Virus record (IMG/VR): IMGVR_UViG_3300042429_000720
Direction: 5' to 3' (one strand)
DNA length: 57,652 nucleotides
Source of the DNA: an uncultured virus (IMG/VR IMGVR_UViG_3300042429_000720)
Lineage: Duplodnaviria > Heunggongvirae > Uroviricota > Caudoviricetes
Part shown: in pieces, positions 29 to 54,945 of the stretch
Position numbering within the stretch: position 1 is the first letter of the stretch
Layout: every line of letters starts with the position of its first letter
The notes under the pieces: generated by a model
Databases searched by the model: none
What the model was told of the DNA's origin: nothing
The model's input: the letters and a program-made list of their open reading frames with translations, nothing else
Translations under genes and position numbers: made by a program

Positions 29-652
29 ATGCATAAGATGAACGATATCTCTCTTACCGAACAAGAGAAATACGTTATTATTGAAAGAGCAGCTAAAGCA
101 TTCGGTGAGTTTCTCGATGCATTAGGAGTTGATTGGAAGAACGATCCTAACTCTTCAGATACTCCACGTCGTGTAGCAAAAGCTTATGTAAACGATTTAT
201 GGTACGGCCGATTCAATCCTATGCCTGCTATCACAGCCTTCCCTTCAGATGGTTACGACGGCATTGTATTTGAAGGAAATATTCCTTTGACTTCGATGTG
301 TTCACATCACCATCAGACCATTACCGGTCGAGTTCATATCGGCTACATCCCCTCTAAGGACGGAAAGGTAATCGGGCTTTCTAAACTGAATCGTATTGTA
401 GAGCATTTCGGCCGTCGAGGAGCTATTCAGGAGCAGCTTACTGTTGCTATCCATAACGCAGTTGATACTGTGTGTGAAGGTAACCTTGGAGTAGCTGTAA
501 TGATTGAGGCAGGTCATAACTGTGTATCATGCCGAGGCACCAAGCACGCCGGTGCATCAATGAAAACATCAAAGCTTTCAGGCAGCTTCCTTGAAGAAGA
601 TTCAGCCCGTGCAGAGTTTTATGAATTTGTAAAAGGATACGCATGCAAGTAA
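29..652 (+). CDS. folE: GTP cyclohydrolase I (probably starts upstream of the window; the frame is open from position 2)
   Basis: TPxRVAKAY, SMCSHH, IGLSKLNRIV, QEQLT and HNCVSCRG Zn-ligand motifs. Confidence 0.96.
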   Translation: MHKMNDISLTEQEKYVIIERAAKAFGEFLDALGVDWKNDPNSSDTPRRVAKAYVNDLWYGRFNPMPAITAFPSDGYDGIVFEGNIPLTSMCSHHHQTITGRVHIGYIPSKDGKVIGLSKLNRIVEHFGRRGAIQEQLTVAIHNAVDTVCEGNLGVAVMIEAGHNCVSCRGTKHAGASMKTSKLSGSFLEEDSARAEFYEFVKGYACK

Positions 653-1137
653 AATTTGTTGACGAAGTAGAACTATTTAATTCTACCTTCGGTAAGCCGA
701 ATAACTACACCCCTATCATTCCTAATGATAAGAAGCTTACAGACTTTGTTGTTAACTTTATTAAAGAAGAAACCGATGAACTCGCCGAAGCAATCGAAAA
801 TAAAGACATCGTGGAAGTGTTGGATGCTATTTGTGATCTCCTGTATGTTGCCGTGGGCAATGCTACTATGGTCTTTGGCCTCAAAGATAAGTTAGAGGCA
901 GCTTACGCTGAGGTACAGGCATCGAATATGTCTAAGAGCTGTGAGACCTACGATGAAGCAATGGAAACTATCGATGCTCATTATAAAGACCATGGTACTT
1001 GTTACACTCGCCAGGTGGGAGATCGATGGGTTGTATACCGTGAATCGGACGATAAGGTAATGAAGTCAATCAATTACTTTGCTCCTAACCTAGAGCAATT
1101 TTTTACCGAAGAAGAAATTAAAAACTCCAAGCAATGA
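643..1137 (+). CDS. MazG-like all-alpha nucleotide pyrophosphohydrolase
   Basis: EExxEL...EVLDAICDLLYV...VQASNMSK...KVMK pattern. Confidence 0.85.
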   Translation: MQVKFVDEVELFNSTFGKPNNYTPIIPNDKKLTDFVVNFIKEETDELAEAIENKDIVEVLDAICDLLYVAVGNATMVFGLKDKLEAAYAEVQASNMSKSCETYDEAMETIDAHYKDHGTCYTRQVGDRWVVYRESDDKVMKSINYFAPNLEQFFTEEEIKNSKQ

Positions 1138-1322
1138 CACCCCAGCAGCTAATCGATCAAAATAAAACCTTCTCAGAAGAGTTGCAGCAATGGATTGTAC
1201 CTCTTATCTTTGTAGACGAAGCTCTTCAGATGAAAACTGCCCAGGATGTAGATGCTAGTATGAAGAGACTTGAAGAAGTAATGCAAGACCTCAACACAGT
1301 AATTAGCAAGATAAATGATTAA
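1134..1322 (+). CDS. hypothetical protein
   Basis: Overlaps both neighbouring genes (ATGA coupling at its start). Confidence 0.6.
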   Translation: MTPQQLIDQNKTFSEELQQWIVPLIFVDEALQMKTAQDVDASMKRLEEVMQDLNTVISKIND

Positions 1323-2145
1323 AATTGCCCATGAGTCTCCAAAAGCTATTTTTAAAGAGATTCAAGAACTTACCGACTACGACTACGCTCTAGTTCACCT
1401 CTTTGAAGAGGATCCTGAATACCTTCAGAAGTTTAAGGATGCTCTGGCAGCCGGCCGAGAAGTTATTCTAGATAATTCTATTTTTGAGTTAGAAGAAGCT
1501 TTTGATGCTAATCGTTTTGCTTACTGGATTAACGAACTTAAGCCAACCTGGTACATCGTTCCTGACTCGTTAGAGAATGTAGAGAAGACTATGTCTAATA
1601 TGGCAGAATGGAATATACACTATGCTGATAAAGTTCCTGCAGAATGTAAGAAGATTGGAGTAGTACAGGGAAAGACTTACTCTCAGATAGTCAATTGCTA
1701 CGAATACATGGTCAGTATAGCCGAAGTAGATATGGTGGCAATCTCTTTCGATTACAGTTATTTCCAAGAGAAATTCCCTCATCCTAACAAATACGTTAGC
1801 TGGATGCTAGGCCGGGTACAGTTGCTAGGTCGAATGCTTAAAGACGGAGTTATTAATCCTGACGTACCTCACCACCTTTTAGGTTGCGGACTACCTCAAG
1901 AGTTTCAATTCTACCGAGAGGCTAAGTACGATTGGATTTACTCCCTAGATACTTCCAATCCTGTGGTTCACGGACTGAAGGAGATTTACTACAAAGACCA
2001 AGGACTGTGGAATAAAGAATCTCAGAAGCTCTTTACCATGATTAACTCCGAAGTTACGGAGAAGCAAATGGAGGTCATTCGTCATAATGTTTCACGCTTT
2101 AGATGGTTTGCAAATGGAAACGCGCCCGTGGGTAACATTCTTTAG
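1315..2145 (+). CDS. dpdA: TGT-fold 7-deazaguanine transglycosylase, DpdA-like
   Basis: ILDNS, VPD, GVVQG, HHLLGC and SLDTS motifs of TGT-like barrels; lies among folE and queF. Confidence 0.75.
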   Translation: MIKIAHESPKAIFKEIQELTDYDYALVHLFEEDPEYLQKFKDALAAGREVILDNSIFELEEAFDANRFAYWINELKPTWYIVPDSLENVEKTMSNMAEWNIHYADKVPAECKKIGVVQGKTYSQIVNCYEYMVSIAEVDMVAISFDYSYFQEKFPHPNKYVSWMLGRVQLLGRMLKDGVINPDVPHHLLGCGLPQEFQFYREAKYDWIYSLDTSNPVVHGLKEIYYKDQGLWNKESQKLFTMINSEVTEKQMEVIRHNVSRFRWFANGNAPVGNIL

Positions 2146-2650
2146 TCAGACAGGTTCTGAGATCGTTCAGATCTCGGAAGCTCTAGGGCGGTGGCCGGAT
2201 ATGATTATTAGTAATCGCCGACCGACTGATGCTAGAATTATTAGTCCTGCTCTTCCTAAAGATCGTCTGTACTTTACCTCCAATAAGCCAGAAGCTTACG
2301 AATACTTACATTATCTCCGTCAGGCAAAAGATCCGATTGTAACTCTACACGGATGGCTTAGAGTACTTCCTGAAGAGGTTTGTGACAGTTACGAAGTTTA
2401 CAACGGTCATCCAGGTTTGATTACCCGCTACCCTGAACTGAAGGGTAAAGATCCTCAGATGCGAGCTTTTGAAGGAGATTATAATACTGGTGGTTGCGTG
2501 ATTCATAAAGTAACTCCCGGAGTAGACGAAGGAGAGATTCTAATGGAAAAAGAAATTAGCATTAGACTGTTGGATCTTGACGGACTATTCCGTACATTAC
2601 ATAAGACTTCAGTCAATATGTGGATTGAATTCCTTAAAGAACGTCTATGA
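2114..2650 (+). CDS. PurN-like formyltransferase (DpdN-like preQ1 formyltransferase)
   Basis: YNGHPGL...KG, GCVIHKV...GVDEGEIL formyltransferase motifs; ATG at 2114. Confidence 0.85.
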   Translation: METRPWVTFFSQTGSEIVQISEALGRWPDMIISNRRPTDARIISPALPKDRLYFTSNKPEAYEYLHYLRQAKDPIVTLHGWLRVLPEEVCDSYEVYNGHPGLITRYPELKGKDPQMRAFEGDYNTGGCVIHKVTPGVDEGEILMEKEISIRLLDLDGLFRTLHKTSVNMWIEFLKERL

Positions 2651-3165
2651 TTAAAAGAGTTGCATTAGTAGGAGCTAGTAGTACCGGTAAGACGACTGTG
2701 TATGAGCTTCTTAAGAATCAGTTCCCGAAGTGGGAGTTTGTAAATGAGAGTACTCGTTCGGTAGCTCGTTACGGCTTTCCTATCAATGAACTAGGTACTA
2801 CAGAAACTCAGTTAGCTATCTCAAGCTTTCATTTAGAGGCATTGCTTAAACCTTATAATCTTATTCTGGATCGTTGTTACTTAGATCTAATAGTTTACTC
2901 TCGTCATATGCCGGGACTATCTCAATCAGGCTTAGATTTTATCGAAGCTACCTGGCAGCGAGTTCAAGACGAATATACTCATTATATCTACTTTCCTATC
3001 GAATTCGATGCAGTCGATGACGGAGAAAGAAGTGTTGATGAAGATTGGAGAAAAATTATCGACGAAGAGTTCAAGTATCAATTAGACCTAACAGACAGGC
3101 ATTACCTGACTGTAACCGGTTCACCTATGCAAAGAGTAAATCAAATCCTTAAATACATTAAATAA
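2647..3165 (+). CDS. P-loop nucleotide kinase-like ATPase (AAA_28/NadR-type)
   Basis: GASSTGKTT Walker A, LILDR, DDGER lid. Confidence 0.8.
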   Translation: MIKRVALVGASSTGKTTVYELLKNQFPKWEFVNESTRSVARYGFPINELGTTETQLAISSFHLEALLKPYNLILDRCYLDLIVYSRHMPGLSQSGLDFIEATWQRVQDEYTHYIYFPIEFDAVDDGERSVDEDWRKIIDEEFKYQLDLTDRHYLTVTGSPMQRVNQILKYIK

Positions 3166-4079
3166 TGGACGCTAACAAGAATCAAAGCGCAGTTGTAGAG
3201 ATTGCAAGTAAACACCTCGGACAGGTAGGTGGTGCAGGCTACTCAGACAAATACGATCCCTCACTGCTAGTAGCAGTACCTCGTTACCTCAACCGAGAGG
3301 CTTACGGCATCAAAGAAGACAGCCTACCTTTCGTAGGAGTTGATTCATGGAATGCCTACGAAGTATCAGCAATCACAGAGAAGGGACGTCCGGTAGCAGG
3401 CATGCTTAAGATTGTATGCCCGGCCGATTCACCATTCCACGTTGAGTCAAAGTCAATCAAGCTTTACCTCAACTCATTCAATATGACTCCTTTTGGCAAG
3501 ACAGCCAAAGAGTGTATCAAGTTTATCGAAACTCAAGTAGCTAAGGACCTTACCGAGCTTCTGCAAGGGGATGTTATTTGTACCTTCTTCGGTAACGATT
3601 ACGGAGTTGAGTTTCAATTCGATGGCTACCAAGACCTAGCCGGTCTAGTAAACCTAGATGAAGTAGAATTTACTTCATTCCACTCAGATGCTTCTCAATT
3701 GAAGGTCTGGGAGGTAAAAGAAGAAAACGTTGTTAAAGAGATTCATTCAGACCTTCTACGTTCTAACTGCCGGGTAACTAATCAGCCGGACTGGGGTGAT
3801 GTTTACATCCGTATGGAAGGTAAGAACGTAGCTGATGAAGCATCACTAGCACAGTACATTGTATCTCACCGCCAGGTCTCTCACTTCCACGAAGAGATCT
3901 GTGAGATGATATTTACTCATCTCATGCAAGCTTATCAGCCTGAAAAACTGATGGTTGCATGTCTTTATACGCGACGTGGAGGAATTGATATTAATCCTAT
4001 TCGAGCCACTCATGCCGAATTGATCCCGGGATGGTTTAAGGATTCGAATAAACGGATGAAAAAAACTTTACGTCAATAA
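3165..4079 (+). CDS. queF: NADPH-dependent 7-cyano-7-deazaguanine reductase, two-domain type
   Basis: ESKSIKLYLNSFN, LLRSNCRVTNQPDWG, FHEEICE, YTRRGGIDINP. Confidence 0.96.
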   Translation: MDANKNQSAVVEIASKHLGQVGGAGYSDKYDPSLLVAVPRYLNREAYGIKEDSLPFVGVDSWNAYEVSAITEKGRPVAGMLKIVCPADSPFHVESKSIKLYLNSFNMTPFGKTAKECIKFIETQVAKDLTELLQGDVICTFFGNDYGVEFQFDGYQDLAGLVNLDEVEFTSFHSDASQLKVWEVKEENVVKEIHSDLLRSNCRVTNQPDWGDVYIRMEGKNVADEASLAQYIVSHRQVSHFHEEICEMIFTHLMQAYQPEKLMVACLYTRRGGIDINPIRATHAELIPGWFKDSNKRMKKTLRQ

Positions 4080-4112
4080 GTTGGAGCCTACGGGCTCCTT
4101 TCTTATTTTTAG
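4079..4112 (+). promoter_or_regulatory. Promoter (AGTTG...TATTTTTAG) with embedded GGAGCC-TACG-GGCTCC terminator-like hairpin
   Basis: Matches the window-wide promoter motif; the ATG follows about 5 nt later. Confidence 0.6.
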
Positions 4113-4116
4113 ATAT

Positions 4117-6450
4117 ATGGCTATAGAAAAAAAGTACTACCTGGTTACAGACAAAGAGACTGTTAACCTACTTATTCAACACATCCAAGAATCAAAGGTT
4201 ATCGCTTATGATACCGAGACTGACTCCCTCAACATGAGGAAAGGTCAGATTATAGGATTCTCCGTATCGGGGGATATCGGGATGGGGTTCTACCTCCCTA
4301 CTATGGCCTGGAACCACCAGACCGGTACCCTAGATGAACTTAATATTGAAGGGGTACCTTGCCACTCTATAGCAAAAAAAATCTTACCTATGCTTATCGG
4401 CAAGAGGCTTGTGATGCACAACGCATCGTTTGACTGCCGGTTTACTAAAAACTTCTACGGGGTGGACCTCCTAGAGAGTTTATGGGTAGATACTGCCTTA
4501 CTAGTCCACACCGTCCAAGAGGAGGGTGCAGGGATGGGGGTATTCGGTCTTAAGTCCCTAGCAATATCAGTACAAAATGAAATCGGACTCGACGTCGAAA
4601 AAGCTGCTAACGAAGAGCAGGTCCTTCTCAAGGAATCTATTAAAGCCAACGGAGGTTCAGCTACTAAGGAAAACTACGAGATTTATAAAGCCGACATGGG
4701 GCTCCTGGGTAAGTATGCTGCTGCTGATACCGACCTTACTCTTCGTCTGTGCAGTCATTTTATGGACGTCCTTCAACGAGAGGGTCTTGAGAAATTCTTC
4801 TTCGAAGATGAAGTAATGCCCCTTTACAAGGAGGTTACTATCCCGATGGAGGAGATGGGTGTTGATTTGAATATAGATTTGCTGCTTGAGACCAGGGATG
4901 AGATTTTAAAAGACTTAGCTGAGAATAAGCAGATCGTTCTTAAATCTTTGATAGGTACTAAGGCCGGCCAGGAATGGGTGGTAGACACTGCTCTAAATGA
5001 GTTCCCGCCCTCTAACAAAGGTACATGGGCACAGACACTAGCCGAGCGATACTCCCTCTCTCTGCCTAAATCTGATAAGACTGGTAAGTTCTCTATTACT
5101 AAAAAGACTTTAGAGGAGCTGGAAGATTCTCCTGCTAAGGAGTACCTACTGACCGGGGACCTAAACCTCTTAGATACTATGGAGGCTATGAAGATCTCGA
5201 TGTCTTTATGGAAGCAAAAGAACGACGGTGACTATGTTAACATCCAGTCTAAAAAACACCTAGGAGAGATAGCATTCAAGTATATGAATATCCGGGCTAG
5301 ATCTCAGACCGCTAAAGGTCAGGATCAGTTCGATATGGATATGCTAGAGGACTTATCTAAGACTCATTCCTGGGCTGAGAACCTCCGGGTTTATAATAAG
5401 CTTCTTAAGATTAAGTCCACTTACATCGATCGGTTTGTTGATAATGCCGAAGATGGGAAGTACTTCTTCTACTTCAAGCAGCACGGTACGGTTTCTGGCC
5501 GATACGGCTCCGATGCCCAGCAGCTACCCAAACCCAAGGAAGAGGGTGAGGACGTTCCAATTATCGTTAAGTACAATAACGCCGTCAGGGCTTTCTTGAT
5601 AGCGGGAGAAGGAAGGAAGATTATCGATGCTGACTATGAGTCACTGGAACCTCACTGCTTTGCTTCAGTATCCGGGGATAGAGGTCTGCAAGATATCTTT
5701 AATAACGGGTGGGACTTTTACTCTACAGTCGCTATTAAGGCCGAAAAGCTTGAACAGGATACAGTCAACTACCCTAATGGAGTTAGTCCGGATAAAAAAT
5801 CTCCGGTCTACCTTAAGAAGATCGATCCCGTTAAAAGGAATAAAGCCAAGGCTTACTCGCTAGGAATAGCTTACGGAATGGAGGCTTACGCGTTAGGAAA
5901 ATCTTTGGACATAGATCAGAAAGCAGCCCAGATCCTAGTTGACGGCTACTTGGATGGGTTCCCCGAACTTAAAGCCTGGAGGATCAACTCCCGTCAGCAC
6001 GTCAAAGAGCACGGCTCTATCAAAAATAAAGTAGGCCGGATAAGGCACCTGCCTAAAGTCCAGAGACTCTACCAGAAGTACGGAGATCAGATCATGGACT
6101 GGAGATATAGGAATGAGCTCGCTAATACCTACGGCAAGGAACAGGTCATGAGTATGTATAGGGATTATCGCAACGGACTTAATAACTGCTTGAACTATCA
6201 GCTGCAATCACTAGCAGCGGCTGTTGTTAACCGGGCTGCTATCCAGATCAATCGTAAGTTAAAAGAGATGGGGATTGACGGCCGGGTTCAGGCTCAGGTC
6301 CATGACCAGCTTATAATTAACGTCCCTGAACATCAAGCCGAGTTAGTAGCACCTATCGTAAAAGAGATCATGGAAAACACCACCCAGCTAGAAGGAGTAA
6401 CTCTAAAAGCACCTCCTGAGATTACAAACAATTGGAGAGATGGGCACTAA
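4117..6450 (+). CDS. polA: Family A DNA polymerase with 3'-5' exonuclease
   Basis: ExoI YDTET, ExoII HNASFD, ExoIII YAAAD; motif A DADYESLE, motif B RNKAKAYSLGIAYG, motif C VHDQL. Confidence 0.95.
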   Translation: MAIEKKYYLVTDKETVNLLIQHIQESKVIAYDTETDSLNMRKGQIIGFSVSGDIGMGFYLPTMAWNHQTGTLDELNIEGVPCHSIAKKILPMLIGKRLVMHNASFDCRFTKNFYGVDLLESLWVDTALLVHTVQEEGAGMGVFGLKSLAISVQNEIGLDVEKAANEEQVLLKESIKANGGSATKENYEIYKADMGLLGKYAAADTDLTLRLCSHFMDVLQREGLEKFFFEDEVMPLYKEVTIPMEEMGVDLNIDLLLETRDEILKDLAENKQIVLKSLIGTKAGQEWVVDTALNEFPPSNKGTWAQTLAERYSLSLPKSDKTGKFSITKKTLEELEDSPAKEYLLTGDLNLLDTMEAMKISMSLWKQKNDGDYVNIQSKKHLGEIAFKYMNIRARSQTAKGQDQFDMDMLEDLSKTHSWAENLRVYNKLLKIKSTYIDRFVDNAEDGKYFFYFKQHGTVSGRYGSDAQQLPKPKEEGEDVPIIVKYNNAVRAFLIAGEGRKIIDADYESLEPHCFASVSGDRGLQDIFNNGWDFYSTVAIKAEKLEQDTVNYPNGVSPDKKSPVYLKKIDPVKRNKAKAYSLGIAYGMEAYALGKSLDIDQKAAQILVDGYLDGFPELKAWRINSRQHVKEHGSIKNKVGRIRHLPKVQRLYQKYGDQIMDWRYRNELANTYGKEQVMSMYRDYRNGLNNCLNYQLQSLAAAVVNRAAIQINRKLKEMGIDGRVQAQVHDQLIINVPEHQAELVAPIVKEIMENTTQLEGVTLKAPPEITNNWRDGH

Positions 6451-6558: not shown

Positions 6559-6999
6559 ATGACACACATCAAGTACACTCCGTGGACTGCAGACTATACG
6601 TCATCCACATTCGACATCCTATTCAAGGATTTCTTTAACACGAACTCAACGTTCGTATCACCGATCGACCAAAAGATCGGACATCCAGTAGACATTTATG
6701 AAACCGAAAAAGGGTTATTCTTCGAGATCGCCGCAACGGGGCTATCGAAGCAAGATATCAAAATCTCAATTGAAGGTGAAATCCTTCGAATTATTCACGA
6801 TAAAGTGGAAGAACAGGTCGATAAGACTAAAGTTCGTTATTACAACAAAGGACTTAGTAGACGATCATTCAATCTAGGTTATAAAATTGCTCGTAGGTTT
6901 GACCTCAGCACAATTGACGCCCAGATGAAAGACGGATTGCTTAAGATCTTCTTACCTCACACCGAGGAACATAAACCTCAAGAAGTAAAGATTAAGTAA
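6559..6999 (+). CDS. Small heat-shock protein (Hsp20)
   Basis: HPVDIYE, GLSKQDI, GLSRRSF, DGLLKI alpha-crystallin motifs. Confidence 0.93.
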   Translation: MTHIKYTPWTADYTSSTFDILFKDFFNTNSTFVSPIDQKIGHPVDIYETEKGLFFEIAATGLSKQDIKISIEGEILRIIHDKVEEQVDKTKVRYYNKGLSRRSFNLGYKIARRFDLSTIDAQMKDGLLKIFLPHTEEHKPQEVKIK

Positions 7000-7057
7000 A
7001 GTTACATTTGGTCCCCTGCGATTTTTTTCGTATCTTTAAGTATTAATCAAAACAGTT

Positions 7058-7339
7058 ATGGCAAGAGGTAAAAAAGTTGGCCACGTAAAGCCGCAAGTCA
7101 CTATTAAAGATGACTCTATCACTCCCTACTATATTAGTATGGACGAGAATCAATTCACCGTTCAGGTGGAAGGTTCCACTCTCCCGCTAGGCTACTACAG
7201 TAGGTTAGATGGAGCTGTAAAACGTATTGCAAAATACAAAGTACTGGAGAATCTTAATCAATCTACAGTTGACCTGACGGACTTTTTAAAGGCTTACGAT
7301 AAAGTATTAACGCAAATTAATGACCGAATTCCGGTATGA
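7058..7339 (+). CDS. hypothetical protein
   Basis: Promoter motif upstream (TTCGTATCTTTAAG); coupled to groES. Confidence 0.7.
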   Translation: MARGKKVGHVKPQVTIKDDSITPYYISMDENQFTVQVEGSTLPLGYYSRLDGAVKRIAKYKVLENLNQSTVDLTDFLKAYDKVLTQINDRIPV

Positions 7340-7635
7340 AGAAACTAATTCCACTTAACGACCGTATTGTGGTAAAGCCGATCGAAGAGGTCGAGCAGAC
7401 TTACGGTAACATCATTATTGCCGATATGGGCAGAGAGCGCCCAGAGATGGGCGAAGTAATCGCAGTAGGACCTGGACGTATGTCAGAATACGGCAAGTTT
7501 GTTCCAGTGAACGTAAACGTTGGCGATATTGTACTCCTTCCTAAAATTGGTACCATCCGAGTTGAATTCGATGGTGAAGAGTATTATATTGGTCAAGCAA
7601 GAGAAATCCTTTGTAAAGTAATCGAAAATGAGTAA
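7336..7635 (+). CDS. groES: Co-chaperonin GroES
   Basis: PLNDRIVV, GEVIAVGPG, VNVGDIVL. Confidence 0.95.
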   Translation: MKKLIPLNDRIVVKPIEEVEQTYGNIIIADMGRERPEMGEVIAVGPGRMSEYGKFVPVNVNVGDIVLLPKIGTIRVEFDGEEYYIGQAREILCKVIENE

Positions 7636-9262
7636 GAAGATTGAATTTTCAAATCAAGCCCGCGAACAGCTCCTTGCTGGAGTTGAGAAGCTTGCTAACG
7701 CAGTAGCTTCCACCCTCGGTCCTAACGGCCGGAATGTTATTATCGAACAGCAGATGGGTAATCCGGTCTCAACCAAGGATGGTGTTACGGTAGCCAAAGC
7801 AATCGAGCTAGAAGACACTATCGAGAATATGGGTGCCCAGCTTGTGAAGCAGGCCTCAATCAAGACTGCAGACGGAGCCGGTGATGGTACTACTACCTCA
7901 ACTCTCCTTGCATACGAAATTTACAAAGAAGGTTTGAAGCATCTGGATAAGCACAACGCAGTAGACATTAGCCGAGGTGTGGCTAAGGCTACCAAAGAGG
8001 TTGTAGCTTACCTAGAGCAACAAGCCCGAGAAATTACCGACGAAAATCAACTTCGTCAGGTAGCAACTATCTCAGCTAATAACGACCCTGAGGTGGGAGA
8101 GCTAATCGCTGCAGCTATGGACAAGGTGGGGCGTGACGGCGTAGTGACTATCGAAGAATCTCGCACAGGCGAGACCTACCTAGAGACGGTAGAGGGTATG
8201 CAGTTTAATCGTGGATATAAATCAATTTACTTTGTAACTGATAATAACACGATGACGGCTGCATTGAGCAACCCACTGGTTTTAATTGCAGATAAAAAGA
8301 TCACTGCCGCCAAAGAGCTTCTTCCAATCCTGGAAGCATGTTCAGCTCAGAACAAAGCTCTGTTAATCATTGCCGATGATATCGATGGCGAGGCTCTCTC
8401 CACCCTGGTCGTAAATAAGATGCGAGGAATCTTGCAAGTAGTAGCAGTTAAGGCTCCAGAATTTGGAGATCGTAAAAAAGCTATGCTAGAAGATATCGCT
8501 ACGCTGACCGGTGGTCAAGTTGTATCAACTGAGAAAGGAATGCGACTGGATAAGTTCAATCCTGATTGGTTAGGTTCAGCCCGCAAAGTTACCATCGGTA
8601 AAGAAGAAACCACGATTGTGGATGGCAAAGGAGCTTCTGAAGCTATTGAAACCCGGGTAGATGAGATCAAAGCTCTGATCGATAATGCTAAATCTCCTTT
8701 CGAAAAAGAGACTCTCCAGGATCGATTAGGACGATTGATTGGCGGTGTAGCGATTGTTTACGTCGGAGGTCAATCAGAACTTGAGATGAAAGAGAAGAAA
8801 GATCGAGTAGAGGATGCATTGCATGCTACTAAGGCAGCCCTTCAAGAAGGTATTCTGCCAGGTGGTGGTACCGCTCTTTTAAATGCAGCTGAATACCTGC
8901 ATGCTAACAAGACACTAGTACCGTTTGCAAATACTTCTGCAGAACTCGGCTATACAATCCTTCTACAGGCTATCAACAAACCTTTCTTTAAGATTTTATC
9001 CAATGCCGGATACGAACAAGGATACTCAGAAGATATTATGAATGAGGTCCTTAATTCAGATAATTTCTGGCAAGGATTTAATCTACGTACCGAAGAGTAT
9101 GTTGATATGTTTGAGGAAGGTATTATCGACCCTGCCAAGGTAACACGCCTGGCGCTAGAAAATGCAGCTTCGATTGCAGGTACTATGCTAACAACCGAAT
9201 GTGTTGTAAGCAACCTAAAAGAGAAGAGCAGCGATCCTATGGATTTTAATTCAATGATGTAA
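7628..9262 (+). CDS. groEL: Chaperonin GroEL
   Basis: TLGPNGRNV, TKDGVTVAK, AGDGTTT, APEFGDRKK, GIIDPAKVTR. Confidence 0.98.
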   Translation: MSKKIEFSNQAREQLLAGVEKLANAVASTLGPNGRNVIIEQQMGNPVSTKDGVTVAKAIELEDTIENMGAQLVKQASIKTADGAGDGTTTSTLLAYEIYKEGLKHLDKHNAVDISRGVAKATKEVVAYLEQQAREITDENQLRQVATISANNDPEVGELIAAAMDKVGRDGVVTIEESRTGETYLETVEGMQFNRGYKSIYFVTDNNTMTAALSNPLVLIADKKITAAKELLPILEACSAQNKALLIIADDIDGEALSTLVVNKMRGILQVVAVKAPEFGDRKKAMLEDIATLTGGQVVSTEKGMRLDKFNPDWLGSARKVTIGKEETTIVDGKGASEAIETRVDEIKALIDNAKSPFEKETLQDRLGRLIGGVAIVYVGGQSELEMKEKKDRVEDALHATKAALQEGILPGGGTALLNAAEYLHANKTLVPFANTSAELGYTILLQAINKPFFKILSNAGYEQGYSEDIMNEVLNSDNFWQGFNLRTEEYVDMFEEGIIDPAKVTRLALENAASIAGTMLTTECVVSNLKEKSSDPMDFNSMM

Positions 9263-30913: not shown

Positions 30914-31096
30914 ATGGACAACAAAAAGCTGACAAGCGTTAGAGTAGAACAGCAGTTATTCGACGAGTTTAAAGTTCAATGCGTACGCTATAAATTTTCT
31001 TTTCAAAAGTTGGCAGATAGAGCTATTTTTTTCTATCTTACAGACGATACGTTTAGAGACAAGGTACATAATCAGAACGATATAAACTTAAAATAA
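30914..31096 (+). CDS. small ribbon-helix-helix-like protein
   Basis: KLTSVRV..LFDEFK...SFQKL; ATG at 30914. Confidence 0.6.
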   Translation: MDNKKLTSVRVEQQLFDEFKVQCVRYKFSFQKLADRAIFFYLTDDTFRDKVHNQNDINLK

Positions 31097-32544
31097 TGCA
31101 AGACAAATTTCGTTATGTTGAGCAGAAAGATCGAAAAAAGATTCTTCTGCTGTGTGATGATATAAGACTCCATTCCGGAGTCGCTACTATGGCAAGAGAG
31201 ATTGTAGTAGGCACATCACATCACTTCAATTGGGTAAACTTAGGAGGTGCTATGAAGCATCCCGATGAAAAGAAAGCCTTTGATCTCTCAGAAGATGTTA
31301 ACAAGCAGACCGGTATAACAGATGCTTCAGTGAAGCTATATGCAACATCAGGCTACGGCACTATTGAGGTTATAAGAGAGCTTCTAAGAGTTGAAAAGCC
31401 TGACGCTATCATGCTCTTTACCGATCCTAGATACTGGGCTTGGTTGTTTGATATCGAAAGAGAGCTTAGAACAACAATGCCTCTCCTGTACTTAAACATT
31501 TGGGACGATTACCCTACCCCTCTTTACAATAAAGCTTATTACGAGTGCTGTGATCTTCTTATGTCTATTTCAAAACAGACTAAGAATATTAACGAGCTTG
31601 TGCTAGAAGATGCTGCTAAAGGTAAGGTACTTACTTATGTACCTCACGGTATTAACGAAGAGCACTTCTTCCCTATTACACCTGAGTCTAAGAATTACGA
31701 CAAGTACCAGGAGTTCAAAAAGAGCATCTTTGAAGGAAAAGATATTGAGTTTGTAGCGTTCTGGAACTCTAGAAACATCCGACGTAAATCACCGGGTGAT
31801 GTTATTCTAGCCTATAGACAGTTCTGTGATCAAGTAGGTCCAGAGAAAGCAAAGAAATGTGCTCTAATTATGCACACCCAGCCTGTAGATGAAAACGGAA
31901 CAGATCTTTACGCAGTTAGAGAAGCTATTTGCGATCCGAGCTACGTTAATGTATTCTTCTCTCAGGACAGATTAGGTCACGAGCAGATGAACTGGCTGTA
32001 CAACCTCGCAGATGTTACTATGCTCATCTCTTCTAATGAAGGATGGGGCTTAAGCTTGACTGAATCTATGATGGCAGGTACTATGATCATTGGTAACGTT
32101 ACCGGTGGTATGCAAGACCAGATGAGATTTGTAGATGATAAAGGTCAGTGGTATACTCCTTCGCTTGAAATACCTTCCAACCACATGGGTACTTATCTAG
32201 AGCATGGAGAGTGGGCTATGCCTGTCTACCCTTCCAACATCTCACTAGTAGGTTCGGTACCTACTCCGTACATCCACGATGACAGATGCGACTTCAGAGA
32301 TGTAGCTGATGTCCTTGAAAGAATCTACATATTGTCTCCCGAAGAAAGAAAGCAGAAAGGACTTGCCGGACGTGAATGGGTAACATCAGACGAAGCAATG
32401 ATGTCTGCTAAGAATATGTCCAAGAATGTGATTCTATCTATCGATCAAACATTTGAAAACTTTACACCTCGTAGCCGATACGATGTGATTAAGGTTGAAG
32501 ATCTTCCTACTAAATATGTAAAACACCCAATGGTATATGAGTAA
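31096..32544 (+). CDS. Glycosyltransferase (GT-B/GT4)
   Basis: SGVA, VPHGI, RNIRRK, EGWGLSLTESM. Confidence 0.88.
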   Translation: MQDKFRYVEQKDRKKILLLCDDIRLHSGVATMAREIVVGTSHHFNWVNLGGAMKHPDEKKAFDLSEDVNKQTGITDASVKLYATSGYGTIEVIRELLRVEKPDAIMLFTDPRYWAWLFDIERELRTTMPLLYLNIWDDYPTPLYNKAYYECCDLLMSISKQTKNINELVLEDAAKGKVLTYVPHGINEEHFFPITPESKNYDKYQEFKKSIFEGKDIEFVAFWNSRNIRRKSPGDVILAYRQFCDQVGPEKAKKCALIMHTQPVDENGTDLYAVREAICDPSYVNVFFSQDRLGHEQMNWLYNLADVTMLISSNEGWGLSLTESMMAGTMIIGNVTGGMQDQMRFVDDKGQWYTPSLEIPSNHMGTYLEHGEWAMPVYPSNISLVGSVPTPYIHDDRCDFRDVADVLERIYILSPEERKQKGLAGREWVTSDEAMMSAKNMSKNVILSIDQTFENFTPRSRYDVIKVEDLPTKYVKHPMVYE

Positions 32545-33808
32545 GCCAACAGTTTTAGTTAGTTGTCCAATTGATACGTACTCTGGATACGGAGGCCGTT
32601 CTAGAGATTTTGTTAAAGCCTTAATTAGTACAGGTAAATATAATGTCTATATTCTATCTCAACGCTGGGGGAATACTCGGTTTGGATATCTAAAAGACCA
32701 TTCAGAGCATGATCTAGCTTCAAAGATTGTACCAAACGTTACAGGTCAACCTGATATCTGGATTCAAATTACAGTACCTAATGAGTTCCAACCTATTGGA
32801 AAGTATAACATAGGAGTTACAGCCGGTATCGAAACTACAATCTGTGATCCAAGTTGGATTGAAGGCTGTAATAGAATGAACCTCACACTAGTATCCTCTC
32901 AGCATGCTAAAGAAACTTTTGAGAGAAGTAAGTTTGAAGTGCAAGATAAGGGTAAGACTACAGGTACAATTGAACTGCAGAAGCCTATTGAAGTATTATT
33001 TGAAGGATTGGATATTGAAAAATATAAACCTGTTACTAGTAGTACTTTTAACCTCTCTGCAGTAGAAGAATCTTTTGCTTACCTCTTTGTAGGACATTGG
33101 CTGCAAGGAGACTTTGGACAGGATAGAAAAAATGTAGGATACCTTGTAAAAGCTTTCTTAGAAAGTTTTAAGAATAAGAAAGACGCTCCTGCTTTAATCT
33201 TAAAGACTCAATCTGCTAACGCTTCTATCTTGGATAGAAACCAAGTACTAAAAAAGATTGACGATATTAGAAAGAGTATTAAAGGTACTTTACCTAACAT
33301 CTACCTACTTCACGGAGAGATGTCTGATGAAGAAGTTAATATGTTATACAATCATCCTAAAGTCAAAGCAATGGTTAGCTTTACTAAAGGAGAAGGATTT
33401 GGCAGACCTCTTCTAGAATTCTCAGCTGTGAATAAACCTATCATAGCTTCAGGATGGTCAGGGCATATCGACTTCTTAGATAAGGAATTTACTTACCTTG
33501 TTGCCGGTACTCTGACTAACGTACATAAGAGTGCTGCAATAGATAAAATGCTATTAAAAGAAGCTCAATGGTTTACACCAGACGATGCACAGACAGGAAC
33601 TGCTTTGCGTATGGTATTTGACAACTATAAGAAGTATGCAGAGCTAGCTAAGAGACAGGGATATAAGTCTCGTACAAACTTTAGCTGGGAGAAGATGGCA
33701 GAGCAATTAGATCAAATTCTCTCAAGTAATCTTCCTGAGTTCCCTAAGCAAGTTGAACTTAAACTACCAACATTACAGCTACCTAAACTACAGAAAATAA
33801 ATGGATAA
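32537..33808 (+). CDS. Glycosyltransferase (GT-B/GT4)
   Basis: SGYG, RKNV, GEGFGRPLLEF. Confidence 0.88.
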   Translation: MSKPTVLVSCPIDTYSGYGGRSRDFVKALISTGKYNVYILSQRWGNTRFGYLKDHSEHDLASKIVPNVTGQPDIWIQITVPNEFQPIGKYNIGVTAGIETTICDPSWIEGCNRMNLTLVSSQHAKETFERSKFEVQDKGKTTGTIELQKPIEVLFEGLDIEKYKPVTSSTFNLSAVEESFAYLFVGHWLQGDFGQDRKNVGYLVKAFLESFKNKKDAPALILKTQSANASILDRNQVLKKIDDIRKSIKGTLPNIYLLHGEMSDEEVNMLYNHPKVKAMVSFTKGEGFGRPLLEFSAVNKPIIASGWSGHIDFLDKEFTYLVAGTLTNVHKSAAIDKMLLKEAQWFTPDDAQTGTALRMVFDNYKKYAELAKRQGYKSRTNFSWEKMAEQLDQILSSNLPEFPKQVELKLPTLQLPKLQKING

Positions 33809-34238
33809 GTTAACCGATTGTAAAAGATGCGGCTCTAATGCCTGCTACGAACAGCACATCAACGAACAGCTAACAACCTGGTTATGTATGGGATGTGGCT
33901 TTACAACCTCTACTGTTATGACAGAAGGAAGCCAGCCAGTCACTCAAGCCTTAGAATCCTCTCCAGAACTCTACAAAGACCTTCTTCATAAAGATCAAGA
34001 CGATCATATATGGATGCCTGCTACGGTAACACTGCCTGGTAAAGGAATGGTGTTTATCGACGGCAGTACTAAAGAGAATTGGAGATGGGCAGCCGTTAAA
34101 GCTGTTGAGATTCTTAAAGAAGAACAGCACAAGTACCCTGAAGGGCAGACTCATAAAATGGATATGAAAGGAGCTCAAAACTTCGAACAGAGAGACTTTA
34201 TGGACGCATTACAAGTAATTGGCTTTTACGAAATGTAA
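33801..34238 (+). CDS. Zn-finger hypothetical protein
   Basis: CKRC...CMGCG. Confidence 0.7.
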   Translation: MDKLTDCKRCGSNACYEQHINEQLTTWLCMGCGFTTSTVMTEGSQPVTQALESSPELYKDLLHKDQDDHIWMPATVTLPGKGMVFIDGSTKENWRWAAVKAVEILKEEQHKYPEGQTHKMDMKGAQNFEQRDFMDALQVIGFYEM

Positions 34239-34864
34239 TGAAAATTAGTTACGCAGTAACGGTTTGTAATGAGCTTGTAGAGATACAACGACTGCTTCCT
34301 TTCCTAATTCAGAACAAGAGGCAGGAGGATGAGATCATTATCTTTTACGATTCCAATAATGGAACTAAGGCAGTAGATGAGTATCTAAGAAGTCTATCTA
34401 CGAATACATTTGCTCCATTTCGGTACATTAGTTACCACTTCGACGGGCACTTTGCTAACATGAAGAATGCTTTGACTGAAGCTTGCTTGGGAGATTATAT
34501 CTTTCAGATTGATGCTGATGAGATGCCTAGCAGTTTTCTAATGCAGCATCTCCCTGCTCTACTTGAAATGAATCAGGTAGATGTTATACTAGTACCTCGA
34601 ATCAACACAGTAGAAGGACTAACCCTAGAGCATGTACAGAAGTGGAACTGGGCTATTAACGAAAAAGACTGGGTAAACTTTCCAGACTATCAATGGAGGA
34701 TCTATAAAAGATCTTCAGATATTAAATGGGTAAGCAAGGTACATGAATACCTAGAAGGATTTAAAACCGCTTCCCCGCTTCCCCCTCAGGAAGAATGGTG
34801 CTTGTTCCATCCTAAAACAATCCAGCGTCAAGAAAAACAAAACGCTTACTACGATACTTTATGA
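34238..34864 (+). CDS. Glycosyltransferase family 2
   Basis: ISYAVTVCNE, QIDADE, PDYQWRI, VHE. Confidence 0.88.
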   Translation: MKISYAVTVCNELVEIQRLLPFLIQNKRQEDEIIIFYDSNNGTKAVDEYLRSLSTNTFAPFRYISYHFDGHFANMKNALTEACLGDYIFQIDADEMPSSFLMQHLPALLEMNQVDVILVPRINTVEGLTLEHVQKWNWAINEKDWVNFPDYQWRIYKRSSDIKWVSKVHEYLEGFKTASPLPPQEEWCLFHPKTIQRQEKQNAYYDTL

Positions 34865-35886
34865 TAAAGATTCGGTTAGTACAACCTGACCTACACCGCA
34901 ATGAGATTGCTTTCCGTCCATATTGGAGAGCTAAAGACTTATTCAAAGAGGTAGGTATAGAGTTTACAACCGAGGATAGTTCATACGATTTTGCTTTTAT
35001 TGCTCAAGCAAGCTTCATAGATAAGCAAGCAAGCTTAGCCGAATCGGTTGAGAAAGGTATTGAGTTTGTATCAAAGTTTGGTAAGGATGTTCTACTGCTT
35101 GATGGACAAGATTCACATTCCCTAATAGGAACAGTTGAAGTACTCCAAGCAACCGAGGTAAAAGTTTTATTTAAGAATACTTTACTCAAAGATCTCTCGC
35201 TATACGAACAGGGCTGGGTTAATGGAAGAACATACTGGGGTGCTGGAGATTACAAAGTACCTTTTATTAATCAAGTTAAGGACAGGATTAAGCTAAGCGG
35301 TACAAACTGGCTCTCTACAATCACCCCAACCTGGTATAATTACTCTTCAGACAAGCCTTACGATGTGTCGTGTATGTTTAGCTGGGGGGATAATTTAAAT
35401 TATGAGTATACAAATTTAACTTCTCCTTACTACGACACCCACCGCAAAGAGTTACTAGAGAAGTTAGAAGGTACTTCTTATAAGGTTGCAAGGAGAGAAA
35501 AAGGAGTAAAAATTCCTCAAGAGCAATTCTACCAGAATATGTACAACTCTAAGATTGTAACAGCTCCTATCGGATATGGAGAGATGGCAGTACGGGATAT
35601 TGAAGCAGCAAGCTTTGGAAGTATTCTTCTTAAACCTGATATGTCTCATCTAGATTCTTATCCGTTTATCTACCAGGATAATGAAACCTATATTGCCTGT
35701 AAGTACGATTGGTCGGATGTAGAAGAAAAGATCGAACACATCTTCAGGAACTATAAAGAACTTCAACCCTACTTAGTAGAGAATATGCGAAGAGCTTACA
35801 CTACTCAGTACTCTAATCAGAGCTTAGTAGAATATTTTTACAAACAGTTATCAACAGTAGAGGGGATAGGGTATGAGAATAACTAA
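34861..35886 (+). CDS. GT-B-like glycosyltransferase
   Basis: SKIVTAPIGYGE...RDIEA...G..L.KP. Confidence 0.7.
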   Translation: MIKIRLVQPDLHRNEIAFRPYWRAKDLFKEVGIEFTTEDSSYDFAFIAQASFIDKQASLAESVEKGIEFVSKFGKDVLLLDGQDSHSLIGTVEVLQATEVKVLFKNTLLKDLSLYEQGWVNGRTYWGAGDYKVPFINQVKDRIKLSGTNWLSTITPTWYNYSSDKPYDVSCMFSWGDNLNYEYTNLTSPYYDTHRKELLEKLEGTSYKVARREKGVKIPQEQFYQNMYNSKIVTAPIGYGEMAVRDIEAASFGSILLKPDMSHLDSYPFIYQDNETYIACKYDWSDVEEKIEHIFRNYKELQPYLVENMRRAYTTQYSNQSLVEYFYKQLSTVEGIGYENN

Positions 35887-36301
35887 TATAGATACGCTGA
35901 GTGCGTACTTGGATAGGTTGATCACTGAAAATATTAAGCTATACTTCTTTGAGAAAGATAACCTAGATGAAAAAGCTAGCCACCAGAAGCTTTTAATTAA
36001 AGAAGTAAAAGGAAAAATAACCGAACTACTAGTTGACTCTCTAGAAAATAGGTCTTATATTTATTTAGAAGAGCATCGTACCTTTGACGAAAATTCTATT
36101 GTTGAACAGCTAGAGGAGCTTATCCGAAACGATATCAACATAGGAGAAGCCGATCGAGCTAGATTAGAAGAGACTAAAAAAAGCAAACCTAATCTTGAAA
36201 GAATGGTTGTTAACGAAAAAAGGCTTCGCAAAGCTAACGAAGGTAGAGCAGCCAACAAAAACAATATCGATAAAATATTTAAACGCATAGCTGAAAAATG
36301 A
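35873..36301 (+). CDS. helical hypothetical protein (DUF4254-like)
   Basis: DRL...NIKL and N..RA..KN.ID motifs seen in sugar clusters. Confidence 0.55.
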   Translation: MRITNIDTLSAYLDRLITENIKLYFFEKDNLDEKASHQKLLIKEVKGKITELLVDSLENRSYIYLEEHRTFDENSIVEQLEELIRNDINIGEADRARLEETKKSKPNLERMVVNEKRLRKANEGRAANKNNIDKIFKRIAEK

Positions 36302-37296
36302 ACAAGACTGTTTTAATTACAGGTGTAGCTGGCCTACTAGGATCTAGACTAGCAGATTGGATTATAAAAAATAAACCCGGCTACAGGGTAGTAGGTATTG
36401 ACGATCTTAGCGGCGGATATAAAGAAAACGTTAACCCAGAAGTTGAGTTCTGGCAGATGGATTTAGTCAATCATCCTATCGAAAATTGCTTTGAAGTTCA
36501 TAAACCAGACTACGTTTTTCACTTTGCAGCCTATGCCGCAGAAGGTCTCTCTCCTTTTATTCGGACTTACAATTACAAGAACAATCTCGTAGCTACAGCT
36601 CGGATCGTTAATGAATGTATCAAGCACGATGTAGAGCGACTAGTATTCACTTCCACCATGGCAGTTTACGGCTTTGGGGAAGGAGGAATCTTCCACGAAG
36701 ATATGAGACGAGCTCCTATCGATCCTTACGGAGTAGCTAAAGCAGCTTGTGAGCATGATATTGAAATTGCAAACGAACAGCACGGACTTGACTACTGTAT
36801 TATCAGACCTCATAACGTCTACGGTGCTAACCAAAACATCTGGGATAAGTACCGCAACGTTCTTGGAATCTGGATGTACTATCATATGGAAGGTCAGCCG
36901 GTAACTATTTTTGGAGACGGTACTCAAAAGAGAGCATTTAGTTACATCGATGATTCTTTAGAGCCTCTATGGAATGCTGCAGTACGCCCTGAAGCTTCCA
37001 AGCAGATTATTAACCTAGGAGGTATTCAAGAGTATTCTATCAACGAAGCAGCTGATATTCTAACTGAAGTTGTTGGAGGTGCTGAAAGAGTTTATTTAGA
37101 GAAACGCCACGAGGTACATTACGCTATCCCAACCTACGACAAGTCTATCGAGCTACTAGGATTCCAGCACAAAACAGATCTTAAAGAAGGTTTGACTAAG
37201 ATGTGGGAATGGGCTCAGCACCAACCTAAACGAGAGAGATTTGTTTGGGAGAATTACGAAATAGAAAAAGGAATTTATTCGTTCTGGAAAAAATAA
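36298..37296 (+). CDS. NAD-dependent epimerase/dehydratase
   Basis: ITGVAGLLGS, YGVAK, RPHNVYG. Confidence 0.92.
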   Translation: MNKTVLITGVAGLLGSRLADWIIKNKPGYRVVGIDDLSGGYKENVNPEVEFWQMDLVNHPIENCFEVHKPDYVFHFAAYAAEGLSPFIRTYNYKNNLVATARIVNECIKHDVERLVFTSTMAVYGFGEGGIFHEDMRRAPIDPYGVAKAACEHDIEIANEQHGLDYCIIRPHNVYGANQNIWDKYRNVLGIWMYYHMEGQPVTIFGDGTQKRAFSYIDDSLEPLWNAAVRPEASKQIINLGGIQEYSINEAADILTEVVGGAERVYLEKRHEVHYAIPTYDKSIELLGFQHKTDLKEGLTKMWEWAQHQPKRERFVWENYEIEKGIYSFWKK

Positions 37297-37298
37297 AC

Positions 37299-38183
37299 AT
37301 GAAGCGGATTGTTATAATTCCTTGCTTTGGTGAAGGGCACTTTACTGCCTTACAGATTGAAAATCTTGTAAACACTATAAAGCCTACTCACATTATTTAC
37401 AATGAAGGACTATTCCCAAAAGGACCTGAAAATAAAGGAGGAGTAGATGAAAGCTTTCGTAAAGAGTTCTGTTTCGAGGATACTAACCTAGCCTGGGATA
37501 CGCAAGTAGTACAAGCAGCTGTAAAAGAAGCTCAAATAAAGTACCCCGAGATACAAATTACCTGGAATGCAGTAGACTACTCAGCCATAGATGCTAACGA
37601 CTGCTACGTACATTCAGTTAGTAACTTTGAAGAATTAGGTGTAGTTGTACAAGAAGGAGATTTGATATTTCCTCTCGAAGGAGATGTATTCTTTCACAAA
37701 AATGATACCGACTTACTAGAAGAACTTATCTCCAATTTAAATCCTGATGAAGGTCTTCAAGCTCCGTACTTAGACTTTATGGAGAATCAATACTACATAG
37801 AGGCAGAAAGTTTAGATCCTTCCCGCATTCATAAAAGAAGAATTGTTATTAAGTTTGGAACCTGGGAATACTACAGAGAGGTTGTAAAGAACTTCACAAG
37901 TCAGAAATACCCTCAACTAACAATCTTTCCAAGATACGTATTTCACTATGCCTGGTGGAGACCCGGTAAGTATAAAGATCTTAGATTTAGACAACTCATA
38001 CGCCCAGAAGCTTACAGAAATGCTTTTAAGTCTGCATTAGAGCAGGCTAAGCATAACAACCAGGACAATATTATTATCAGGCCGGATAGATTAGAAGCTG
38101 ATCCTCTACGTTATATAACTCGAATTAATATAGATCACCCGTTGGAGATCTATACTCATCCTAACTATATTAAAGCATTATGA
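37299..38183 (+). CDS. GT2-like protein
   Basis: IVIIPCF; EGDVF DxD-like motif; FHY; cluster context. Confidence 0.6.
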   Translation: MKRIVIIPCFGEGHFTALQIENLVNTIKPTHIIYNEGLFPKGPENKGGVDESFRKEFCFEDTNLAWDTQVVQAAVKEAQIKYPEIQITWNAVDYSAIDANDCYVHSVSNFEELGVVVQEGDLIFPLEGDVFFHKNDTDLLEELISNLNPDEGLQAPYLDFMENQYYIEAESLDPSRIHKRRIVIKFGTWEYYREVVKNFTSQKYPQLTIFPRYVFHYAWWRPGKYKDLRFRQLIRPEAYRNAFKSALEQAKHNNQDNIIIRPDRLEADPLRYITRINIDHPLEIYTHPNYIKAL

Positions 38184-53971: not shown

Positions 53972-54124
53972 ATGAATGAAAACATTAAAGAATTGGTGGT
54001 TGAATTTGCAGAAGCATTAGACGAATCAGTTGTAATAGCATTATTTGATGAGCTAAAAGCTGAGGATAAGCCTTTTGCAAAAGAGGCACTACTTCGGTAT
54101 TTGTCAAAATATTTACCAATTTAG
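53972..54124 (+). CDS. hypothetical early protein
   Basis: GGTTATG start. Confidence 0.7.
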   Translation: MNENIKELVVEFAEALDESVVIALFDELKAEDKPFAKEALLRYLSKYLPI

Positions 54125-54215
54125 GTAAGATAATTTCAAAAAAGTTTAGGAGGGGGTTGGTTTTACCGACCCTCTTTCTTATCTTTAGGTATTAATAACA
54201 ACAAACACAACAGTT

Positions 54216-54458: not shown

Positions 54459-54519
54459 GAGGGGGTTGGTTTATCCAACCCTTCTTCGTATCTTTAGTAA
54501 ACAAATAAAAAAAACGGTT

Positions 54520-54720: not shown

Positions 54721-54782
54721 AAAAATAGTTGCTCAATTGAAATTTCGTTCTTATCTTTAGGTAAATAAAAACAACAACGGTT

Positions 54783-54893: not shown

Positions 54894-54945
54894 TAGTTGG
54901 TTGGTATTAGTCTAGTTACTATCTTTAGGTAAATAAAAACAACAA

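Follow-up and report, generated by a model that had tools for sequence, protein, structure and literature searches.

The DpdA3 operon of an uncultured phage and a possible nucleotide-level route to complete guanine replacement in DNA

A 57,652-nucleotide (nt) stretch of the uncultured Caudoviricetes virus IMGVR_UViG_3300042429_000720, referred to here as the window, opens with a deazaguanine gene cluster that includes a guanine transglycosylase of the DpdA3 type. Open reading frame (ORF) calls together with Pfam, PHROG and NCBIfam matches placed eight genes, FolE through PolA, between positions 2 and 6450, all on the + strand. These are listed below with a hairpin near the start of polA and the chaperone genes that follow it (E, E-value; aa, amino acids).

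29-652 (open frame from 2), + strand: FolE, GTP cyclohydrolase I (PF01227, E 6.3e-44; phrog_2197)
643-1137, + strand: MazG-like all-alpha NTP pyrophosphohydrolase (PF01503 PRA-PH, E 1.1e-12; phrog_671 "nucleotide pyrophosphohydrolase", E 6.5e-30)
1134-1322, + strand: 62-aa ORF overlapping both adjoining genes (no family match)
1315-2145, + strand: DpdA3-type guanine transglycosylase, predicted minimal TGT barrel of 276 aa (phrog_19058, E 1.9e-45)
2087-2650 (start 2087 or 2114), + strand: DpdN, PurN-like formyltransferase (PF00551, E 7.4e-13)
2647-3165, + strand: small P-loop kinase of the AAA_28 type (PF13521, E 2.6e-15; phrog_2107 "thymidylate kinase", E 1.4e-24)
3165-4079, + strand: QueF, two-domain preQ0 reductase (PF14819, E 8.9e-33; PF14489, E 1.9e-20)
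4083-4109, + strand: hairpin resembling a terminator, with a U-run, in the gap from queF to polA (-16.6 kcal/mol, z -2.94)
4081-6450 (likelier start ATG 4118), + strand: PolA, family A DNA polymerase with 3'-5' exonuclease (PF00476, E 3.9e-59; PF01612, E 3.8e-13)
6559-9262, directly after polA: Hsp20, GroES and GroEL

The genes from FolE to QueF all overlap, by 10, 4, 8, 59, 4 and 1 nt in that order, which makes translational coupling plausible. FolE is truncated by the window edge; in an identical IMG/VR record (L003; 111.5 kb, estimated 68% complete, 0 mismatches in 10,142 nt) the gene begins 59 nt further upstream and encodes 236 aa (L003:6628-7338). The 62-aa ORF found no match in Pfam, PHROGs or NCBIfam, and its homologues, as detected by phmmer, were confined to the closest loci. 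The polA ORF opens at a TTG at 4081, and its first ATG lies at 4118. Since a GC-rich hairpin and, after it, a run of U (4083-4109) lie between the queF stop at 4079 and this ATG, translation of polA probably starts at 4118, and the gene may be transcribed separately from the operon, which it adjoins but to which it is probably not coupled. Only 2 of 200 shuffled sequences folded as well as this hairpin; over the whole scan, 7 terminator-like sites were found versus 5.5 expected from shuffles, which is no excess. The original prediction, which had described a single coupled operon directly before polA, thus placed all eight genes correctly and was right about the overlaps between FolE and QueF, but its FolE was incomplete, and the adjacent polA is probably not coupled to the operon.

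Upstream of FolE, the L003 record encodes an HGPRT-like phosphoribosyltransferase (PRTase; E 2e-29 to solved HGPRTs), a thioesterase, a 310-aa protein, a non-specific endonuclease, ThyA and a HAD phosphatase. A search further upstream for queC, queD and queE, suggested in the original prediction, located all three in the same phage record, QueE and QueD approximately 8 kb and QueC approximately 15 kb ahead of the first window position. With FolE and QueF in the window, the phage therefore encodes a complete route from GTP to preQ1, and homology indicates that FolE along with QueD, QueE, QueC and QueF would make preQ1 as a free base from GTP. In QueF, PF14819 and PF14489 both scored above their cut-offs, and TIGR03138 gave 260 bits, below its cut-off of 293. 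The non-specific DNA/RNA endonuclease (PF01223; L003:4176-4769), encoded just upstream of the cluster and recurring in many related loci, could release deoxynucleoside monophosphates (dNMPs) from host DNA.

Megablast of the region against phage records gave no match. The same set of genes in the same order, including an NTP pyrophosphatase, the kinase, PolA, GroES and GroEL, is present in Flavobacterium phage immuto_2-6A, the annotated DpdA of which is 70.5% identical to the window protein (tblastn). The two loci differ in that in the window phage QueD, QueE and QueC lie further upstream, QueF stands directly before PolA and Hsp20 precedes GroES, whereas no Hsp20 is annotated in immuto_2-6A. 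In immuto_2-6A DNA the dG peak is gone and 7-formamidomethyl-7-deazaguanine (fdPreQ1) was measured at 345,000 per million nucleotides (PMC10516641). The shared synteny, the identity of the transglycosylases and these DNA data together show that the window belongs to the fdPreQ1 system already published, so that the cluster itself is known. The comparison with a Flavobacterium phage made in the original prediction proved accurate: the window carries the same DpdA3, DpdN, QueF and FolE set, which goes with full G replacement by fdPreQ1. By analogy, the operon would produce DNA in which fdPreQ1 replaces all G, as measured in immuto_2-6A, and it is very likely that the DNA of the window phage carries fdPreQ1 in place of G. 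The kinase is not discussed in PMC10516641, as the word "kinase" does not occur in its main text or in one supplement to it.

The product of 1315-2145 had no Pfam match, and its assignment to the tRNA-guanine transglycosylase (TGT)/DpdA enzymes was upheld by comparison with phage homologues and by structure prediction. tblastn matches were found in 23 phage records: 4 of immuto type (70.5% identity), 14 of Campylobacter phages (37-40%; 37% for CP220) and 5 of Cellulophaga phages (27% for phiST). A DpdA3 profile recovered the proteins of immuto_2-6A, CP220 and phiST with E 1.6e-115, 5.2e-81 and 6.7e-25, which places the window protein in the DpdA3 subfamily, as defined on these phages (PMC10516641). 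An AlphaFold model built from an alignment of 46 family members reached a mean confidence (pLDDT) of 96.3; the predicted fold is a TGT-type (beta/alpha)8 barrel, and all 50 Foldseek matches listed were tRNA-guanine or archaeosine transglycosylases (prob 1.00, TMq 0.59-0.67). Four residues, D53, D84, H187 and D212, are invariant in the alignment of 46. The HLLG strand and the Asp following it align to Salmonella DpdA (7ui4) in a weak profile match (E 0.094), with D212 falling on the Asp of the SID motif, that is, on the nucleophile Asp256 in the numbering of PMC10164549, an equivalence that depends on an inferred 20-residue tag offset in the residue numbering. D53 (in LDNS) and D84 (in PD) occur in the order expected for Asp95 and Asp130 of DpdA, and the alignment to the solved structure stops short of both.

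In the bacterial enzyme (bDpdA), a 128-residue insertion after the nucleophile forms the DNA-binding face (PMC10164549), whereas DpdA3 ends approximately 64 residues after D212 and thus lacks the large insertion (Ins8). DpdA3 resembles bDpdA and DpdA1 in its TGT-type barrel, and its nucleophile Asp and HLLG motif can be aligned with theirs. Small size, negative charge and loss of the insertion were considered as a mark of a substrate other than DNA and rejected, since the DNA-acting DpdA1 of phage 9g is likewise short and acidic (317 aa, net charge -8, compared to -12 for the window DpdA3); a short DpdA3 therefore does not exclude DNA as its substrate. The DpdA3 family is large, with 3,450 proteins at E <= 0.001 in one search and 1,425 cluster representatives in another. 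A scan with the divergent DpdA3 P0262 returned no locus.

DpdN is a homologue of the immuto_2-6A gene, and its family profile matched structures of glycinamide ribonucleotide (GAR) transformylases (best E 2.3e-14). Residues N106, H108 and D147 were invariant in 38 sequences; this Asn-His-Asp set, which we take to be the catalytic residues of PurN, together with the position beside DpdA3 and QueF, identifies the protein as DpdN. Fusions of DpdN to DpdA3 were found in P0169, P0227 and L125. Where GAR transformylases show a loop of the form S-G-x-G-S-N, which presumably holds the substrate phosphate, DpdN has S-Q-T-G-S-E with an invariant Glu; this substitution cuts both ways and no conclusion is drawn from it. 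The product of 643-1137 belongs, by its profile matches, to the MazG/all-alpha NTP pyrophosphohydrolases (PF01503, 48.6 bits against a cut-off of 21.3; PF03819, 18.1 bits, below its cut-off of 22).

The model of the P-loop protein (pLDDT 92.2) was nearest in fold to the ribosylnicotinamide kinase domain of NadR (TMq 0.79), to thymidylate kinases and to deoxynucleoside kinases. Among solved structures, its profile matched a deoxynucleoside kinase (8puu, E 2.8e-6), NadR and deoxyguanosine kinase best, and thymidylate kinase more weakly (E 0.009). Predicted fold and profile thus identify the protein as a small-molecule kinase of the nucleoside or nucleoside-monophosphate type. The thymidylate kinase label of its PHROG was not borne out, as PF02223 matched neither the window kinase nor anything in record G002, and a canonical thymidylate kinase was not found in any phage checked. 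The window kinase is 65.1% identical to that of immuto_2-6A. A second gene of the family (profile E 9.7e-27) lies in CP220 at 5419-5922, far from the DpdA3 locus of that phage. Two further P-loop proteins, the HD-fused domain of CP220 and phiST gp041, were rejected as paralogues of the kinase, having reached only E 0.42 and 0.63 with the kinase profile. In Streptomyces phage Samisti12 (L089), a member of the kinase family is encoded at 7049-7618; a MazG-like gene lies at a distance of 5 kb, and this neighbourhood has no annotated DpdA. The family is widespread in this group of phages, often next to a methyltransferase and within the replication module.

Gene neighbourhoods were read in the best 80 of 557 IMG/VR loci, the DpdA3 proteins of which are 52-100% identical to that of the window. 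Kinase, DpdN and QueF were counted within 4 kb and on the same strand in the 59 loci with at least 3.5 kb beyond the DpdA3 start, and MazG up to 3 kb before or 4 kb after DpdA3, in the 66 loci with at least 3 kb upstream. Downstream of DpdA3, the kinase was present in 57 of the 59 loci, DpdN in 57 and QueF in 58; a MazG-like homologue was found beside DpdA3 in 37 of 66. Where both flanks could be read (n=50), kinase and MazG occurred together in 32 loci and the kinase only in 17; MazG was in no case present without the kinase, and one locus had neither. Linkage to this DpdA subfamily, which the original prediction had offered as a check on its reading, is therefore strong for the kinase, which also has an orthologue in CP220 and occurs in the same 14 Campylobacter records as DpdA3, and moderate for MazG.

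Two types of locus were distinguished, one from immuto-like phages that have PolA, the other from T4-like phages that have Gp23, UvsY, UvsW and PolB, so that the block of DpdA3, DpdN, kinase and QueF is carried in unrelated backbones. In T4-like loci, a 145-aa ORF between FolE and DpdA3 was matched neither by the MazG profile nor by Pfam, and shows by eye a nuclease-like D...D-x-K pattern. The PRTase adjoins FolE in 34 of 66 loci (6 plus 28), and a DCD-like gene occurs in 13 of the 80 loci. Small DUF3310 proteins (L087:2451-2708, L088:8267-8536, L120:556-789 and P0245) were observed either in the usual place of the kinase (L087 and L088) or adjoining DpdA3; one is fused to the DpdA3 C-terminus.

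Like the window, Campylobacter phage CP220, in which dADG replaces G completely (PMC10516641), has a DpdA3 homologue directly before an orthologue of the kinase (profile E 4.5e-56). Unlike the window, CP220 has no DpdN or QueF near DpdA3, and in place of MazG it encodes a fusion of an HD and an AAA_33 domain; the 16.7 kb covered around this locus yielded no PRTase. Fletchervirus NCTC12673, from the same collection, has neither DpdA3 nor the kinase. The HD domain of the CP220 fusion had been considered as a dGTPase, and was dropped as support because the P-loop domain to which it is fused most resembles polynucleotide kinase Pnkp1 (E 9.2e-7). In Cellulophaga phage phiST, DpdA3 is neighboured by MazG and an AAA_18 P-loop protein, with no PRTase detected nearby; the phiST-like loci L111 and L113 have a PRTase, a DCD-like protein of the dUTPase superfamily and an AAA_18 protein by DpdA3, followed by PolIII alpha.

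A further 22 loci came from metagenome-assembled genomes (MAGs) and cellular genomes, of which profiles were run on 15 and Pfam on 9. Among divergent, non-actinobacterial MAG loci, 5 of 11 carried the AAA_28 kinase. A conserved block is common to five actinobacterial loci (L131-L135, from MAGs and one isolate, a 686-kb contig; e.g., L133:800-6800): it consists of QueD, QueE, two genes of the thymidylate kinase family, an FAD oxidoreductase, an HhH-GPD glycosylase-like gene, a distant DpdA3-like gene (profile E 1.6e-13 to 4.4e-22) and a homologue of phiST gp040. This block could be a prophage, a system for DNA modification or a pathway to deazapurine nucleotides in the cell; L132 additionally carries a PfkB kinase. 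One of the five non-actinobacterial loci with the kinase is a gut-type phage module without preQ synthesis genes (L125:1889-8826), where a PolA split by a GIY-YIG homing endonuclease was found with, in this order, an AAA_28 kinase, a DpdA3-DpdN fusion, a DCD/dUTPase-like protein and a Vut_1 transporter (YhhQ-type, preQ-type). This module looks as though the base were imported.

As a control, 6 of 17 loci around DpdA1 relatives were scanned, a small sample mostly from one lineage, and in 5 of these neither a kinase nor an NTP pyrophosphatase was found within 7 kb; likewise, neither is annotated in the 50 of 56.7 kb of phage 9g that were read. DpdA1 genes, like DpdA3, adjoin polymerases. Adjacency to polA was therefore given no weight as evidence for a nucleotide-level route, the more so as the hairpin separates queF from polA in the window.

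Taken together, these observations bear on the stage at which the modified base enters DNA. The prevailing view in the literature is that every 7-deazaguanine in DNA is inserted after replication. The original prediction proposed instead a base swap at the nucleotide level, and we tentatively favour this reading, at somewhat less than an even chance: fdPreQ1 DNA may be made by a swap on free nucleotides before replication. DpdA3 would exchange guanine for the deazaguanine on dGMP or a nucleoside and not in finished DNA. The MazG-like enzyme would convert dGTP to dGMP, thereby keeping G out of phage DNA and feeding DpdA3, and DpdN would formylate the aminomethyl group of a small molecule, much as PurN does with glycinamide ribonucleotide. 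The kinase would then re-phosphorylate the product, for which the guanylate kinase of the host may be unsuited, and host nucleoside diphosphate (NDP) kinase and the phage polymerase would complete the route. Guanine released by the swap may be turned by the HGPRT-like enzyme into GMP and further into GTP, the precursor of the next preQ1. Applied to the subfamily as a whole, and held just as tentatively, the same reading is that DpdA3 enzymes swap bases on deoxynucleotides or deoxynucleosides in free form, and that full replacement of G, whether by fdPreQ1, dADG or dDG, is pre-replicative, with ordinary phage polymerases of three families incorporating the modified nucleotide.

Several lines of evidence support this nucleotide-level reading. 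The kinase stands beside DpdA3 in 57 of 59 loci and in CP220, and has the fold of a nucleoside or nucleoside-monophosphate kinase; in the phiST-like and actinobacterial loci, kinases and pyrophosphatases of other types fill the same places; and most of the scanned DpdA1 loci lack both activities nearby. In addition, phages with DpdA3 are 100% modified, compared to 0.1-32% of G in the others (DpdA1 and bDpdA); expression of DpdA3 in E. coli yielded no product, although DpdA1 and DpdA2 do function in that host; and the ADG nucleoside was detected in infected cells (PMC10516641). No published pre-replicative route for deazaguanines was found in the literature searched, which did not extend to subscription journals, and the mechanism is put forward as an unpublished but serious hypothesis.

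A number of points weigh against the nucleotide-level reading. The authors who defined DpdA3 state that insertion is post-replicative (PMC10516641), a statement that this reading contradicts. Neither size nor charge separates DpdA3 from the DNA-acting DpdA1 of 9g. No enzyme of the TGT family is known to act on a free nucleotide. The kinase is missing from L087 and L088 among the 59 loci and from the flank read in 6 of the 11 divergent non-actinobacterial MAG loci (one of them truncated), MazG was not found in 29 of 66 loci, and synteny shared by relatives is partly a matter of inheritance and not independent evidence. Because no canonical thymidylate kinase was found, the kinase could be the general dNMP kinase of these phages; its family occurs in 89 Streptomyces phage records, and Samisti12, the sole Streptomyces phage neighbourhood examined, has no annotated DpdA. 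The HD/P-loop protein of CP220 may, from its nearest relative, be an end-healing enzyme (a polynucleotide kinase-phosphatase) and not a dGTPase. One of the six DpdA1 loci does have a NadR-like AAA_28 protein, PnuC and MazG 4-5 kb away. Finally, the PRTase is a clear HGPRT homologue and fits salvage of guanine.

In the published reading, DpdA3 swaps G for preQ1 or formyl-preQ1 very efficiently, and purely in replicated DNA; this is considered a substantial possibility, if well short of an even chance. The kinase and the HGPRT-like enzyme would then recycle guanine through GMP and GDP to GTP for FolE, or raise the nucleotide supply, and MazG would serve general house-cleaning or host takeover. 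All characterised relatives (TGT, bDpdA, DpdA1 and DpdA2) work on polynucleotides, a catalytic motif is common to DpdA3 and the DNA-acting bDpdA, and insertion after replication is the conclusion reached in PMC10516641. The occurrence of the kinase family in phages without DpdA3, of DpdA3 without a kinase nearby in MAG loci, and of polymerases next to DpdA1 genes also speaks for it. However, the post-replicative reading leaves unexplained why 100% modification is confined to DpdA3 phages and why, of the phage enzymes, DpdA1 and DpdA2 work in E. coli but DpdA3 does not (PMC10516641); nor does it explain the frequent presence of a dNTP pyrophosphatase type in the cluster, and it gives no reason for a kinase beside DpdA3 in CP220, where a PRTase went undetected in the sequence read. 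The nucleotide-level swap thus gains support from gene neighbourhoods while being opposed by the published statement and rivalled by guanine recycling.

A combination of both routes, with a modified dNTP polymerised and DpdA3 also converting G that has slipped into DNA (from primers, repair or residual dGTP), appears improbable. It would accommodate the TGT ancestry together with the nucleotide enzymes, and a total absence of dG is easier to reach with two layers, but unless DpdA3 itself joins the base to a sugar phosphate, another enzyme is needed for that step. A ribonucleotide route, in which the HGPRT-like enzyme joins preQ1 to phosphoribosyl pyrophosphate, the kinase makes the diphosphate, and ribonucleotide reductase and NDP kinase yield the dNTP, is very improbable: the PRTase does adjoin FolE in about half of the loci counted and is found in L111 and L113, and actinomycete deazapurine nucleosides are built in this way, but this route leaves the signature gene DpdA3 without a role, no PRTase was detected near DpdA3 in CP220 or phiST, and HGPRT chemistry uses the purine N7, which deazaguanines lack.

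The nucleotide-level reading was originally likened to the Z-genome set of PurZ, MazZ, DatZ and DpoZ (cyanophage S-2L and relatives). The likeness is one of logic only, in that a canonical dNTP would be removed and a substitute built at the nucleotide level and polymerised. There is no PurZ, and PolA, with 61.1 bits on the DpoZ model NF038380, well below the cut-off of 500, is not a DpoZ. The hydroxymethylcytosine pathway of T4, with the dCTPase gp56, the dCMP hydroxymethylase gp42 and the dNMP kinase gp1, has the same three-step layout of triphosphatase, modification at the monophosphate level and dedicated kinase; it differs in that the base is modified in place with no base exchange, and its enzymes are unrelated to those of the window.

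Elsewhere in the window, approximately 15 kb (31096-46786) are taken up by glycosyltransferase and nucleotide-sugar epimerase genes (phrog_2170 and phrog_540) with many no-hit ORFs between them, a sugar-metabolism block that is large for a phage. Close to the window's end, at 54001-56000, G+C drops to 0.318 and GC skew climbs to 0.289.

As a gene cluster, the operon adds another instance of a system already on record, and its value lies in the sharpened question of when the base is exchanged. If the nucleotide-level reading is true, it would add a new reaction to the transglycosylase superfamily, in which DpdA3, a member of an abundant family, would be the first TGT-family enzyme to act on a free nucleotide or nucleoside, and it would represent a fourth way by which phages achieve complete base replacement. 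It would also offer a route to the enzymatic synthesis of 7-substituted 7-deaza-dGTPs, and the pairing of such an enzyme with a kinase in actinobacterial chromosomes would mark a cellular pathway for deazapurine deoxynucleotides.

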